Shown: piece after piece, positions 6,095 through 9,735 of the stretch
Position numbering within the stretch: the first letter of the stretch is position 1
Layout: each line of letters starts with the position of its first letter
NCBI RefSeq assembly: GCF_002075285.3
Contig: NZ_CP021983.2
Span: forward strand, 450,001 to 482,000
From: Halomicronema hongdechloris C2206
GTDB taxonomy: Bacteria; Cyanobacteriota; Cyanobacteriia; Phormidesmidales; Phormidesmidaceae
Length of the DNA: 32,000 bases
Direction: 5' to 3'
Notes under the pieces: model-generated
What the model was told of the DNA's origin: nothing
Database searches by the model: none
What the model saw: only the letters and a program-made list of their open reading frames with translations
Program-made: the position numbers and the translations under genes

Positions 6095-6194
6095 CAGAAG
6101 TAGGAAGGCAGAAGGCAAAAAGGGAGATCCTGATAAATGCAGCTTTGCCGCTCTAGTCAATCGAGGTGTTATTTCTGCCGCAGAGTACTAGATA
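6095..6194 (+). repeat. Left arm of an ~80-100 bp inverted repeat pair (partner 9634-9735)
   Basis: atcctgataaatgcaGCTTTGCCgctctagtcaATCGAGGTGttatttctgccGcagagtactagata matches the reverse complement of the partner, atcctgataaatgcaATCCTTCTgctctagtcaGTAGCAGTAttatttctgccAcagagtactagata. Identical blocks of 15, 10, 11 and 14 nt are present. Weaker similarity extends about 20 nt further out. Confidence 0.75.
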
Positions 6195-6295
6195 CTGCTC
6201 CTCGGTGATTGAATGCCTGCCTTGCGGCTGACCCAGTTAGCCTTTCAATCCTGAGCTCTGCTGGGCTTTAATAGGAACAACCAGCCTCCAAACCG

Positions 6296-7708
6296 ATGCC
6301 CAAGATTTTCATCTCCTATCGACGCAGCGATAGTGAAGACGTGGCCGGACGCATCTATGACCGGCTGGTGGCCCATTTTGGTCATGACGCTATCTTCAAA
6401 GACGTCGACGACATTCCCTTCGGCGTCGACTTCCGCGACTATTTGAACACCAGCCTGGATCAGTGCCAGGTGGTGCTGGCCGTCATCGGCAAGTCTTGGC
6501 TGATGGCCACCGACGCCAGCGGTAGACGTCGCCTGGATAACCCCGCCGATTGGGTCCGCTTGGAGCTAGAAGAATCCCTGCGTCGCCCGGATGTGCTAGT
6601 GGTGCCGTTGCTGGTGAGCCGAGCCAGCTTACCCAGGGTCGATGAATTGCCTGAGAGCCTGAGAGCATTGCCCTATCGGAATGGGGCACAGGCTCGTCCA
6701 GACCCCGATTTCCATAAAGACATGAATCGGTTGATTGTCGGGCTAGAGCAGTATTTCCAGCAGAGAAATCAACCCACTGCCAACCCATCTTCGCGCCGAG
6801 ACCGGCCCCCTAGGGCGGTTAATCTCCAACCGAAGCGACCGCCTGCCGTTCCCACCTTCTCCTTTGACGTGGTGACGGTTGATGCCCAGGGCAACATCAC
6901 AGAGCGCCGCCAGGCAGAGGCCAATTATCACAGTGAAGACTTGGGTAATGGCATCAAGCTGGACTTGGTGCACATCCCTGGCGGCGAGTTTTTGATGGGG
7001 TCACCTGCGGGTGAGAAAGGTCGAAGTGACGACGAAGGACCTCAACATCGAGTGCAGGTTCCCGAGTTTTGGATGGGCAAGTTTCCCGTCACCCAGGCCC
7101 AATACCAGGCAGTCATGGGGGAGAACTCCAGTCGCTTTTCTGAAAACGGCAGCAATCGCCCAGTGGAGTCGGTATCCTGGCACGATGCGGTGGCTTTCTG
7201 TGAGAAACTCTCGGAGTTAACCAGCCGCGACTATCGGCTGCCGACGGAAGCGGAATGGGAATATGCCTGTCGGGCTGGCACCACCACACCATTTTACTTT
7301 GGGCCGACGATTACGACCGAGTTAGCGAATTACCGAGGAACTGACTTGACGTACGAAGGTAACACTTTTCCAGGTAATTATGGTCAAGGTCCTAAAGGTG
7401 ACTTCCGACAGCAGACGACTGAAGTCGGCAGCTTTCCCGCCAATGCCTTCGGCCTCTACGACATGCACGGCAACGTCTGGGAATGGTGCCAGGATGTCTG
7501 GCACAGCAGCTATGCGGGAGCGCCCAGGGATGGCTCCGCCTGGCTAGAGGGAGGCAATCAAGACCTCCGGCTGCTGCGGGGTGGCTCTTGGGCCTTCCAT
7601 CCCACGTTCTGCCGCGCTGCCTGCCGCTTCCTCCTCTTGCCAGATGGCCGCCTCGACAGCCGCGGGTTTCGGGTGGTGTGGTCTGCCGCCAGGACTTACG
7701 CGTCCTGA
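6296..7708 (+). CDS. TIR domain + FGE-sulfatase (SUMF1-like) domain protein
   Basis: Intact 470-aa ORF. The N-terminus is MPKIFISYRRSDSEDVAGRIYDRLVAHFG...QVVLAVIGKSWL...DWVRLELEESL (TIR_2-like). An Arg/Pro-rich linker follows. The FGE-sulfatase motifs are IPGGEFLMGSP, RLPTEAEWEYACRAGT, MHGNVWEWC and LRGGSW (~6953-7681). Confidence 0.9.
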   Translation: MPKIFISYRRSDSEDVAGRIYDRLVAHFGHDAIFKDVDDIPFGVDFRDYLNTSLDQCQVVLAVIGKSWLMATDASGRRRLDNPADWVRLELEESLRRPDVLVVPLLVSRASLPRVDELPESLRALPYRNGAQARPDPDFHKDMNRLIVGLEQYFQQRNQPTANPSSRRDRPPRAVNLQPKRPPAVPTFSFDVVTVDAQGNITERRQAEANYHSEDLGNGIKLDLVHIPGGEFLMGSPAGEKGRSDDEGPQHRVQVPEFWMGKFPVTQAQYQAVMGENSSRFSENGSNRPVESVSWHDAVAFCEKLSELTSRDYRLPTEAEWEYACRAGTTTPFYFGPTITTELANYRGTDLTYEGNTFPGNYGQGPKGDFRQQTTEVGSFPANAFGLYDMHGNVWEWCQDVWHSSYAGAPRDGSAWLEGGNQDLRLLRGGSWAFHPTFCRAACRFLLLPDGRLDSRGFRVVWSAARTYAS

Positions 7709-7818
7709 GCGAAGTCGTAGGCTTTGCCTGCCCGGAGGGCATAGGATAGTCCTTTTCACTCTGACCCGCTTACCCTTTACCCTGGCTATTGCTCTAAACG
7801 TTTTGTGCCCAGGTAAAG

Positions 7819-8391
7819 CTAACGCAAGACAATCTGACGCCGGTGAAACCAACTAATGACCTGAGCGTGCTCTAACTCTTGCAATAACCTAGTCACCGTC
7901 ACTCGAGTGGTTCCAATCGTATCGGCAATGTTTTGATGGGTCAATCGTAGCTGAATTAGCTGACCTTGGCGAATAGGGCGACCAAATCTCTGAGCTAACC
8001 ATTGCAAGAATAGCTCTAGCCGCTGACGAATATTGCCATGACGAATTCTAAGTAACTCTTGCATTTGATGGATATGTGACAGCATAACTTGATGTAAGTT
8101 ATCGCAACCGTCAACCCTGATCAGAGTCACCTCTACAGTCGTTAAACACTCAATTTGAAACGGCTGAATACAGCTAATGGGTTGACCTAAAATATCTCCT
8201 CCCCACCAAAATCCTAAAGAGATCGTAGCACCGTCCTCAGAGATGGTGAATGTGCGTGCGGCCCCACTCCTAATTTGCCAAAGCATATTTTCACGCAGCG
8301 GAATGATCTCGCGTCGCTTAAAGCTGCGCACTGTATAGGATCCTAATGCAGGTGAATTTAGGTTGGAGATGTACATAGCAATAATAACCAT
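7819..8391 (-). CDS. Crp/Fnr-family transcriptional regulator (cNMP-binding-like domain + C-terminal HTH)
   Basis: 190-aa ORF. The beta-roll-like N-terminal part is LWQIRSGAARTFTISEDGATISLGFWWGGDILGQP. The HTH is LTHQNIADTIGTTRVTVTRLLQELEHAQVI. The DNA is low in GC. Confidence 0.8.
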   Translation of the reverse strand: MVIIAMYISNLNSPALGSYTVRSFKRREIIPLRENMLWQIRSGAARTFTISEDGATISLGFWWGGDILGQPISCIQPFQIECLTTVEVTLIRVDGCDNLHQVMLSHIHQMQELLRIRHGNIRQRLELFLQWLAQRFGRPIRQGQLIQLRLTHQNIADTIGTTRVTVTRLLQELEHAQVISWFHRRQIVLR

Positions 8392-8430
8392 CGAATAGCG
8401 AGCTGATCATTATGGCAATTTTTCACTGAC

Positions 8431-9015
8431 TCAATAGATCCAACTGGTAGTTTCACTTTTTCTCAGTAGAATTAGCTGACCCTGATTGTACATGATCAGA
8501 TTTTCCTTGCTGAGAGAAGTCAGTAAGCGCTTCACGGTAATTCGTTTGGCACCAATCGCTTCCGAAATTTCCTGGTATGTTAGACGCAGATCGATCAACC
8601 AGCCTTGCTTCACCTTGTAGCCAAACTTTTTAGCTAGCCATCGCAAAAAACACTTCAGTCTTTCCAGGACAGAGGTCGCTCGGAGAATGCAGTGTAATTC
8701 TTCTACCTGTTGTAAGTGCTTGAATACCGCTTCTAGCGACTGATCCCATAGATTAGCTGGCAAAGCGCTGACCTCTACTTCAGTTAAACACTTAACTTCG
8801 TAAGGGCATAATCGTGACAGAGGTTGGCCAACCACATCGCCTACGTGCCAATATCCCAAGATAACTGGAGTACTATCTCGATTCCAGGTCAACGTTCGAA
8901 CCACTCCGCGCTCAATTCTCCACAGCACGTCCGCCCGCAGTGGAATCGTGCTATTGGCTTGAAAGTAATGTGTCTCAAGTTGAGGTAGTGATAACTTGGA
9001 CAACTTTTCGACCAC
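8431..9015 (-). CDS. Crp/Fnr-family transcriptional regulator, tandem paralog of 7819..8391
   Basis: ORF track 8431..9021. It shares the layout (LWRIERGVVRTLTWNRDSTPVILGYWHVGDVVGQP; HTH LTYQEISEAIGAKRITVKRLLTSLSKENLI). A strong SD, aaggagg (revcomp of ~9027-9033), lies 9 nt upstream of the GTG at 9015, so I prefer that start over the TTG at 9021. Confidence 0.8.
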   Translation of the reverse strand: MVEKLSKLSLPQLETHYFQANSTIPLRADVLWRIERGVVRTLTWNRDSTPVILGYWHVGDVVGQPLSRLCPYEVKCLTEVEVSALPANLWDQSLEAVFKHLQQVEELHCILRATSVLERLKCFLRWLAKKFGYKVKQGWLIDLRLTYQEISEAIGAKRITVKRLLTSLSKENLIMYNQGQLILLRKSETTSWIY

Positions 9016-9017
9016 TA

Positions 9018-9215
9018 TCAAACACCTCCTTTTGAACCAGATAAACTAGATACCAGAGCTATTACGATGGTCAAGCAAGAGACCAATACAATCGCCATCA
9101 AGCTGAGTAAAAGATTGAGGAAACATTGCGGATGCTCTAGAACTCTTATCCAGACCATTTCAGAGCTAGGAGTAAGTTTATTCAAGCGTCCATCATCTTC
9201 TATTGCATCTGACAT
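9018..9215 (-). CDS. Small hypothetical membrane protein (65 aa), abutting the downstream Crp gene
   Basis: ORF track: MSDAIEDDGRLNKL...CFLNLLLSLMAIVLVSCLTIVIALVSSLSG has one clear hydrophobic helix. Its stop sits 2-3 nt from the Crp start. No recognisable family. Confidence 0.35.
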   Translation of the reverse strand: MSDAIEDDGRLNKLTPSSEMVWIRVLEHPQCFLNLLLSLMAIVLVSCLTIVIALVSSLSGSKGGV

Positions 9216-9360
9216 GATTAAAAGCTTCTCAATGTGATTTCAATCCTTTTCCAGTTAGATTCAAATCCCTTAAAAAGCAGAAAATTGGTCTTAGATAGTT
9301 TAAGCTTCGCTGAGCTTGACACACTCCAACTCCTGATTTGAAATAGAGAGCTCTCGAAAA

Positions 9361-9609
9361 CTATCCTTTGTCATGCGGTAGTTCGTCTTGGATAGATGAA
9401 AATTTCATGGAATCACCTGATCGTCTATCCAGCATCCTAAGTACCAGGGTAAACAGTAATACTAGAGCAACACTCGTGACTCCTATCCAAGTGAAAATGT
9501 GAGCTTCCAACATAGACGAATCATTCGGTAATAAGTTATTCAAATCGTTGGATGATATGAATGCGAACCATAGGACATTCGAAGTGCTGCTATGGGCATA
9601 TGTCAACAT
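9361..9609 (-). CDS. Small hypothetical membrane protein (~82 aa from the ATG at 9609; the track ORF starts at TTG 9633)
   Basis: ORF track 9361..9633. There is one hydrophobic helix (WIGVTSVALVLLFTLVL). The DNA is AT-rich and no family is recognised. Confidence 0.3.
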   Translation of the reverse strand: MLTYAHSSTSNVLWFAFISSNDLNNLLPNDSSMLEAHIFTWIGVTSVALVLLFTLVLRMLDRRSGDSMKFSSIQDELPHDKG

Positions 9610-9633
9610 GATATATCTCCAGTTTTTGAACAA

Positions 9634-9735
9634 TATCTAGTACTCTGTGGCAGAAATAATACTGCTACTGACTAGAGCAGAAGGATTGCATTTATCAGGA
9701 TTTCTCTTTTGCTTTTGCCATGCTCTCTTGCTTCT
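9634..9735 (-). repeat. Right arm of the inverted repeat pair (partner 6095-6194)
   Basis: The plus strand reads tatctagtactctgTggcagaaataa...tgactagagc...tgcatttatcaggat. This is the reverse complement of the left arm. The best-conserved ends (gagtactagata) of both arms face the enclosed 3.4-kb segment. Confidence 0.75.

Follow-up and report, generated by a model that had tools for sequence, protein, structure and literature searches.

The arms of an inverted repeat around a 3.4-kb segment in Halomicronema hongdechloris are very probably old, independent copies of an IS630-family MITE

Elements of the IS630/ISY100 group (IS630-Tc1-mariner) duplicate a TA in a CTAG-type context, have imperfect terminal inverted repeats of ~20–35 bp, and encode a transposase with HTH and DDE_3 domains. 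Among small repeats, the Correia elements of Neisseria and the eukaryotic Stowaway MITEs also duplicate TA. Both are intergenic elements of ~100–150 bp with terminal inverted repeats (sizes from PMC3184786). Cyanobacteria carry Nezha and other MITEs (~130–170 bp in Anabaena and Nostoc, MaeMITEs in Microcystis), which are small, TSD-flanked intergenic repeats bounded by terminal inverted repeats; Nezha-type MITEs share termini with intact IS, and their mobility was deduced from the comparison of filled and empty sites (PMC3184786). The locus described here lies in a 32-kb window of the H. hongdechloris C2206 genome, the whole stretch of DNA that was analysed (32,000 nt), and has features of all these systems. 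It holds the two arms of an inverted repeat, each a 105–108-nt unit with TA on both sides, and the terminus of this unit is identical to one that follows an IS630-type transposase C-terminus. Unlike the IS630/ISY100 elements, the window copies are non-coding derivatives with no cognate transposase in the window. The family differs from Nezha and its like in sequence, in being shorter, and in its Leptolyngbya/Nodosilinea-like host lineage, and it has no sequence relationship to Correia or Stowaway elements; the documented promoter and RNase III-site functions of Correia elements were not found in the window copies. We found no published name for it. The two arms are very probably old copies of a ~105-bp IS630-family MITE that inserted independently in two intergenic spacers: small size (105/108 nt), terminal inverted repeats (in the left copy), TA duplication, and filled sites with empty counterparts are all present.

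A preliminary description had reported an inverted repeat with arms near 6095–6194 (+) and 9634–9735 (−), sharing identical blocks of 15, 10, 11, and 14 nt. The repeat is real: self-BLAST of the window aligns 6107–6200 (+) with 9719–9628 (−) at 81% identity over 95 nt (E = 9.8e-14), and a repeat search of the window returns 6118–6200 and 9628–9710 (83 nt, 81% complementary). All four blocks were found in the claimed order (ATCCTGATAAATGCA, 15 nt; GCTCTAGTCA, 10 nt; TTATTTCTGCC, 11 nt; CAGAGTACTAGATA, 14 nt). With nhmmer, the homology reaches outward to 6082 and 9749, beyond the limits first given, and over the whole element the left and right copies are identical at 78/110 positions (71%), the 3' two-thirds being better kept than the 5' third in their alignment. 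The 14-mer and the 15-mer each occur at these two places only in the window (chance expectation 0.04–0.17), and neither self-BLAST nor nhmmer finds a third arm copy in the 32 kb. We rejected the view that the identical blocks reflect constraint, since the blocky pattern is not significant: when 18 mismatches are scattered randomly over 95 nt, a run of at least 15 nt arises in 53% of simulations, and 15 nt is the longest identical run between the arms.

The left copy (6082–6190, +) is a 105-nt element (6084–6188, GTATGCCAAGGCAGAA...TTCTGCCGCAGAGTAC) between a TA at 6082–6083 and another at 6189–6190. It matches the family profile with E = 3.7e-25 (nhmmer), and its imperfect terminal inverted repeat spans 6082–6102 and 6170–6190 (21 nt, 71% complementary); at both ends it agrees with other members of the family. 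The element interrupts a host repeat, present at 6012–6222 (+) as a filled site (6012–6083, MITE, 6191–6222), of which an uninterrupted paralogue (5850–5953, +; repeat families D2 and D10) lies 160 nt upstream and is intact exactly at the left-arm position. The empty site reads ...CCT-TA-G-GCG-CTGCTCCTCGG... and the filled site ...CCT-TA-(105 nt)-TA-G-ATA-CTGCTCCTCGG...; their alignment has a single 107-column gap, with a single TA(G) in the former and a TA on each side of the MITE in the latter. Since the host repeat resumes immediately at 6191, the left arm inserted into it alone, with the TA duplicated. The three bases after TA-G differ between the paralogous sites (GCG versus ATA), which counts against the MITE model. 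A mechanical ORF at 5750–6160 (−) overlaps the left arm and has no match in a Pfam scan. Outside the element, the gene encoding a TIR domain and an FGE-sulfatase domain (6296–7708, +; PF13676 and PF03781) starts 105 nt beyond the left MITE and has normal genomic GC. Its closest relative (70% identity) is a gene in an unrelated context. An IS630 element beside the nearest TIR–FGE homologue (L070) was considered as parent and rejected, its termini being different.

The right copy (9638–9749, −) comprises a TA at 9749–9748, a 108-nt element at 9747–9640, and a TA at 9639–9638, and matches the family profile with E = 1.8e-20 (nhmmer). Its 3' terminus (TTCTGCCACAGAGTAC) is intact and its 5' terminus degenerate (ATACAACAAGTTAGAAG); the internal inverted repeat is no longer detectable in this copy and the 3' repeat alone is retained, which fits a decayed copy. 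Two short ORFs run across this arm, at 9637–9864 (−) and 9647–9844 (+). The arm sits within, and not at the edge of, a conserved psbA-like/small-ORF/Crp/Crp cluster (7819–10111, −), supported by the gene order in the relatives L073 and L074, by blastp, and by the GC profile. The cluster begins with a psbA-like relic (ORF 10111–9899, −; D1-like matches at 10060–9919), whose residues 11–43 match D1 residues 9–40 with E = 2.4e-11, so the relic that had been noted next to the right arm is genuine. A conserved spacer motif (9820–9778, −) lies between the relic and the MITE; then come a small ORF (9609–9361, −), with 28 nt from the MITE end to its start codon, a second small ORF (9215–9018, −), and two Crp-like genes (9021–8431 and 8391–7819, both −). 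L073 and L074 have the same gene order, and all five genes are orthologous by blastp. The element is absent from their orthologous psbA-like/small-ORF spacers, although the alignment there is confined to the right flank. Past the right arm, the small ORF's 5' leader runs on as it does in L074; the left flank of the L074 'empty site' does not align, a point against the MITE model. The right copy marks a lineage-specific insertion between the conserved motif, which lies upstream, and the small-ORF/Crp operon. The psbA-like gene of this cluster is already decayed.

Related elements occur in other Leptolyngbya/Nodosilinea-like cyanobacteria. Both window arms end in ...TTATTTCTGCC-N-CAGAGTAC, and the 3' terminus TTCTGCC-N-CAGAGTAC-TA closes elements of 94–136 bp with matching 5' ends in L001, L002, L004, L057, and L060. 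The same terminus closes ~31 near-identical copies of 97–99 bp, ~28 of them in metagenome Ga0169931 and the rest in L004, L024, and L050; all lie in the context C/TA...TA/G, with otherwise unrelated flanks. When built solely from the two window arms, a profile matches L060 (E = 1.8e-11), L057, and the two L002 copies (L002b and L002a), in each case along almost the whole element. Other genomes have several copies, two in L002 (2.6 kb apart) and ~28 in Ga0169931; the 32-kb window has two. Family copies elsewhere occupy unrelated positions, e.g., L002b between convergent 3' ends. Strong folding (z = −6.8) is seen only in a young palindromic copy, that in L004, as expected of any intact element with terminal inverted repeats. 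Searches of plasmids with the arm DNA and of viral contigs with the element core returned nothing.

The family is linked to a transposase through its terminus, which in six contigs (L003, L026, L034, L042, L055, and L064) is preceded by ...AKILAFVDYFNRTLAKPFKWNYTGKPLVS and a stop. By tblastn, this peptide has matches in annotated transposases of the IS630 family; it also matches DDE_3/PF13358 fragments that are named IS630. Three full-length relatives from cyanobacteria (L068, L069, and L075), each of ~1.3 kb, have HTH and DDE_3 ORFs and terminal repeats of 31–37 bp that start with CTAGTAC and end in ...TTTATTTCCGCCGTTATGTACTAG; full-length cyanobacterial IS630 elements share CTAGTAC...GTACTAG ends. 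By eye, the repeat end of these three elements matches the arm end at ~19/23 positions. Of the true parent, only right-end pieces at the ends of contigs were recovered, and a chimeric 54-aa probe for its transposase gave contig-end fragments and no full-length parent. Judged by these sequences, the MITE termini are shared, at the family level, with those of a transposase-encoding autonomous IS. TA duplication and a preference for CTAG are given for the IS630 family in PMC2170065, which cites Tenzen & Ohtsubo 1991, and the context of the ~31 near-identical copies agrees with this target behaviour. IS630-family elements in the H. hongdechloris genome are listed by ISsaga (supplement of PMC6416890). 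ORF domain scans found no transposase or recombinase inside the 3.4-kb segment, as had been stated, nor in any of the window's sizeable ORFs. We rejected IS200/IS605 ends and REP/RAYT (GTAG-tagged) repeats on account of the terminal inverted repeats, the TA flanks, and the DDE_3/IS630-linked transposase.

The preliminary description had offered several readings of the locus, among them that the arms bound an invertible or excisable 3.4-kb cassette, that they are the footprint of a low-GC insertion, and that two copies of a dispersed element flank the segment by chance. Element anatomy, family members, and the solo left insertion support the last. The low-GC block (~7.8–10.1 kb in the GC profile) extends past the right arm and coincides with the cluster, not with the arms, which speaks against the footprint. 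Because the left arm entered on its own and the right arm interrupts a conserved cluster, the bracketed 3.4 kb is not a natural unit, nor is it a mobile or an invertible one. If the MITE pair served as the ends of a composite transposon, an IS630-type transposase would move the whole 3.6-kb block; the arms are inverted and TA-flanked, and the title of Tenzen & Ohtsubo 1991, as cited in PMC2170065, concerns the experimental transposition of IS630-flanked composite transposons. This is nonetheless extremely improbable: the interrupted host repeat resumes at 6191 rather than on the far side of the right arm, which means that the left arm came in by itself, and a composite needs the right arm's outer end, which is the degenerate one. 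Moreover, the right arm splits the conserved cluster and leaves the psbA-like gene outside, in relatives the TIR–FGE gene is not linked to the Crp cluster, and the GC boundaries disagree with the arms; the block shows neither insertion as a unit nor intact outer ends. We give even less credence, close to none, to a flip of 6191–9637 by homologous recombination or by an invertase acting in trans. The arms have the inverted orientation this requires and lie just upstream of convergent genes, but present orientation is ancestral on both sides (host repeat after the left arm, small-ORF leader after the right), and the window has no invertase or recombinase gene. Efficient RecA recombination needs a minimum of ~20–30 nt, and the arms, only 81% identical, have no identical run longer than 15 nt. 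An invertible switch has near-exact short inverted repeats and an adjacent site-specific recombinase, and neither is found here.

The shared ~80 nt could also act as a common promoter, operator, or 5' leader of two genes, an exaptation that we consider very unlikely. In its favour, the start codons of the TIR–FGE gene and the small-ORF/Crp operon, both of which read inward, have the same element end upstream of them, at 105 nt and 28 nt, respectively; conservation is higher in the 3' two-thirds of the element than in its 5' third, and effects of MITEs on nearby genes are known (reviewed in PMC3184786). However, the well-kept part is the transposase-binding terminus common to the whole family, the mismatches fit random scatter, and other family copies stand in unrelated positions such as that of L002b. 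Both arms lack a sigma-70-like promoter match, and a promoter and terminator scan found nothing inside them. The suggestion of a conserved ncRNA module drew no support either: an Rfam scan of the whole window gave nothing at the arms, and the folding z-scores of the two arms on both strands (+0.3, +0.5, −0.2, and −1.1) give no structural signal, whereas a structured ncRNA or riboswitch would be expected to have an Rfam match or a stable or covarying structure. The sole Rfam match is a cobalamin riboswitch elsewhere in the window. Three known operators of cyanobacteria (the LexA box RGTACNNNDGTWCB, NtcA GTA-N8-TAC, and Crp/Fnr palindromes) were compared by eye and rejected, since they fit no copy. 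It is highly unlikely that the pair was co-opted as a shared cis element or that the 3.4 kb is occasionally inverted or deleted through it. If co-option were true, TIR–FGE expression would be coupled to the small-ORF/Crp operon through a promoter, operator, or leader hairpin.

Under the independent insertion of two MITE copies, the element would have kept only the two ends of its parent IS, i.e., the transposase-binding terminal repeats, and a parent-type transposase encoded elsewhere would have moved it in trans by cut-and-paste into a TA, preferably within CTAG or TTAG, that became duplicated. Two copies of one subfamily would have inserted independently, one in the repeat-rich spacer upstream of the TIR–FGE gene and the other in the spacer between the psbA-like gene and the small-ORF/Crp operon; the order of these events is likewise conjectural, and the opposite orientation 3.4 kb apart would be happenstance. 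Both have since decayed, to a mutual identity of 71–81%, the right copy having lost its 5' terminal repeat. As both are decayed, they are probably immobile now. Past the 3' TA, GATA follows in both arms, which is unexpected under a pure MITE model; it could reflect gene conversion or chance at roughly 1/64.

On this interpretation, what had been a candidate for an invertible or excisable cassette becomes routine genome litter, which in itself matters little; for annotation, the arms are to be masked as repeats. What it adds is a MITE family derived from IS630, apparently unnamed and present in Halomicronema, Nodosilinea, and related filamentous cyanobacteria, of which the ~28 near-identical copies in one metagenome represent a recent burst.

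The inverted repeat that the preliminary description had placed at the edges of a 3.4-kb segment (a TIR-FGE gene, two Crp-like genes, and two small ORFs) is present. A repeat search of the window recovered 6118-6200 and 9628-9710 as an inverted repeat of 83 nt (81% identity), and self-BLAST agrees (6107-6200 versus 9719-9628, 81% over 95 nt, E 1e-13), the two arms being the sole inverted pair of that strength within the 32 kb. The identical blocks of 15, 10, 11, and 14 nt described between the arms were also found. They add no information, because in a simulation with 18 mismatches placed randomly over 95 nt, 53% of the trials had an identical run of 15 nt or more.

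The left arm is internally paired (6082-6102 with 6170-6190). Loci L001, L002, and L004 from the comparison set show this layout too, their conserved core being complementary to an inverted sequence that lies 60-80 nt upstream; it follows that each arm is a small palindromic element in its own right. The left copy, on the plus strand, has 105 nt (6084-6188) between TA dinucleotides at 6082-6083 and 6189-6190. The right copy, on the minus strand, has 108 nt (9747-9640) between TA at 9749-9748 and 9639-9638, and its 5' terminal repeat is decayed. Over their whole length the copies are 71% identical.

A single scan of the genome collection with the best-conserved 21-nt core of the arms gave four matches in four filamentous cyanobacteria, among them Nodosilinea sp. 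P-1105; only about 25 nt are common to the window and these four loci. L002 carries a second complete copy (L002b) 2.6 kb away. It has the same orientation as the first, and the genes on its two sides converge, with their 3' ends towards it. In L003 the core lies 58 nt from the start of the retrieved locus, after the C-terminus of a transposase instead of an inverted partner. Metagenomes, scanned with the 18-nt terminus (of which 17 bases were specified), gave 63 loci. About 28 copies in metagenome sample Ga0169931, two in further samples (L024, L050), and the one in L004 of the genome collection are near-identical elements of 97-99 bp with unrelated flanks, every one in a C/TA...TA/G context. 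A profile built from the two window arms alone showed near full-length homology to elements in L060, L057, and both L002 copies, so that the kinship of the arms with these small non-autonomous transposons (MITEs) extends beyond the termini. At the 5' ends of the family there is a variable tandem heptamer, GGCAGAA, with five copies in L002b (L002 6380-6415) and two or three in the left arm (6093-6115) and in L060.

At six loci the MITE terminus is preceded by a coding end, AKILAFVDYFNRTLAKPFKWNYTGKPLVS and a stop, and this peptide is matched by transposases annotated as IS630-family and by fragments of DDE_3 (PF13358) that bear the name IS630. Three loci (L068, L069, L075) hold full-length cyanobacterial IS630 elements of ~1.3 kb with HTH and DDE_3 ORFs. 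Their terminal repeats of 31-37 bp start with CTAGTAC and end, for example, in TTTATTTCCGCCGTTATGTACTAG, closely similar to TTATTTCTGCCGCAGAGTACTAG of the arms. IS630-family elements target and duplicate TA, CTAG being reported as the preferred site (PMC2170065 and its reference list), and are listed for H. hongdechloris in the supplement of its genome paper (PMC6416890). From these sequence comparisons, the arms are very probably an ordinary, decayed pair of IS630-derived MITEs that happens to flank 3.4 kb. Their family is apparently new and without a name, within a well-known kind of element.

The left MITE was inserted into a repeat-rich intergenic region (5540-6295). Here, a paralogous sequence at 5850-5953 is uninterrupted (...CCTTAG-GCG-CTGCTCCTCGG), and the copy at 6012-6222 is interrupted by the arm (...CCTTA-(105 nt)-TAG-ATA-CTGCTCCTCGG). 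The host repeat continues directly after the left arm, which therefore arrived alone and not as the end of a 3.6-kb block. Both arms have GATA beyond the 3' TA (6191-6194, 9637-9634), in contrast to GGCG at the paralogous empty site; the cause may be gene conversion between the two copies over a short tract, or chance. The region also contains a 73-nt direct repeat (5850-5922/6012-6084, 88%) and a hairpin, GGATTCCCGCCTCCGCGGGAATGACGG (about 5940-5966). The 17-nt word GGGTCGCGCTGCGCTTG at 5563-5579 recurs inverted at 5863-5879 and 6025-6041. The whole probably represents a further family of small dispersed repeats. The neighbouring genes 2564-5521 and 6296-7708, both on the plus strand, carry paralogous FGE-sulfatase domains (patches of 73-79% DNA identity) and differ in their N-terminal signalling modules (NACHT/NCH4/HEAT versus TIR). 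A further NACHT ORF lies at 22030-22914.

The enclosed Crp-like protein was used as a query, and the gene context of its matches revealed a cluster (window 7819-10111, minus strand) that two relatives keep: psbA-like gene, small ORF or ORFs, Crp-like gene, and in some cases a second one (L073 37-3493; L074 199-2503). All five window genes of the cluster have orthologous counterparts. The minus-strand order in the window is psbA relic, right arm, two small ORFs, and two Crp genes. The right arm thus represents an insertion inside the cluster. The corresponding spacers of both relatives hold no MITE-like element, and the small-ORF leader of L074 aligns with the window from exactly the TAG beside the right arm, the other flank being unaligned.

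The bracketed 3.4 kb is not a unit. An invertible or excisable cassette had been raised as one possibility, and the footprint of a low-GC insertion as another; four results argue against a unit. The left arm came alone. The right arm sits inside a kept cluster. The low-GC block (about 7.8-10.1 kb) has the same extent as this cluster and passes the right arm, while the GC of the TIR-FGE gene is normal and the neighbourhood of that gene in its closest relative is unrelated. Lastly, transposase and recombinase genes are absent from the whole 32-kb window (and not just from the segment, as already noted), and the arms are identical over 15 nt at most, a short stretch for homologous recombination. 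Because each arm lies just upstream of an ORF that reads into the segment (TIR-FGE from 6296, plus strand; a small ORF from 9609, minus strand), a common promoter or leader was considered. It was rejected: a promoter scan found no match in the arms, no Rfam family was found there, and on both strands the folding energies were like those of shuffled sequences (z from -1.1 to +0.5). The folding and Rfam results likewise give conserved ncRNA modules no support. Elsewhere in the window, a cobalamin riboswitch (RF00174, 62.5 bits, 14162-14350, plus strand) precedes genes for HupE/UreJ (14371-15060), a TonB-dependent receptor (15447-18452), and a FecCD permease (19854-20954), in this order. What stands from the preliminary description is that two copies of a dispersed element happen to flank the segment, with matching MITEs in L001, L002, L004, L057, L060, and Ga0169931.

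This cyanobacterial cluster consists of a divergent psbA-like gene, one or two small membrane ORFs, and one or two Crp/Fnr-like regulators. The psbA-like gene of the window is a relic (9919-10060, minus strand) that looks internally deleted: the match to D1 residues 14-39 (10060-9983) gives way directly to a weak one to residues 324-344 (9981-9919). The best solved-structure match of its N-terminal piece is chain 7sa3_A, 'Photosystem q(B) protein'. In the full-length L074 homologue several Mn-cluster ligands are apparently absent by eye (D170E, E189D, E333S, D342L-type changes), and given this loss its product would be a 'rogue' D1. We know of no report that connects psbA genes of this kind with paired Crp regulators. 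In all three loci the spacer after the psbA-like gene keeps a ~45-nt non-coding motif, GTCTTCTATTG..GCAATA..CCCCATTTTT (window 9778-9820, minus strand; L074 ~1385-1430; L073 ~930-970), which occurs once in the window and there includes the palindrome TATTGC-N7-GCAATA (9796-9814). It is a candidate operator or promoter of the small-ORF/Crp operon, from which the right MITE now separates it by 110 nt. The cluster with its kept palindromic spacer motif is a more interesting by-product than the MITE pair.
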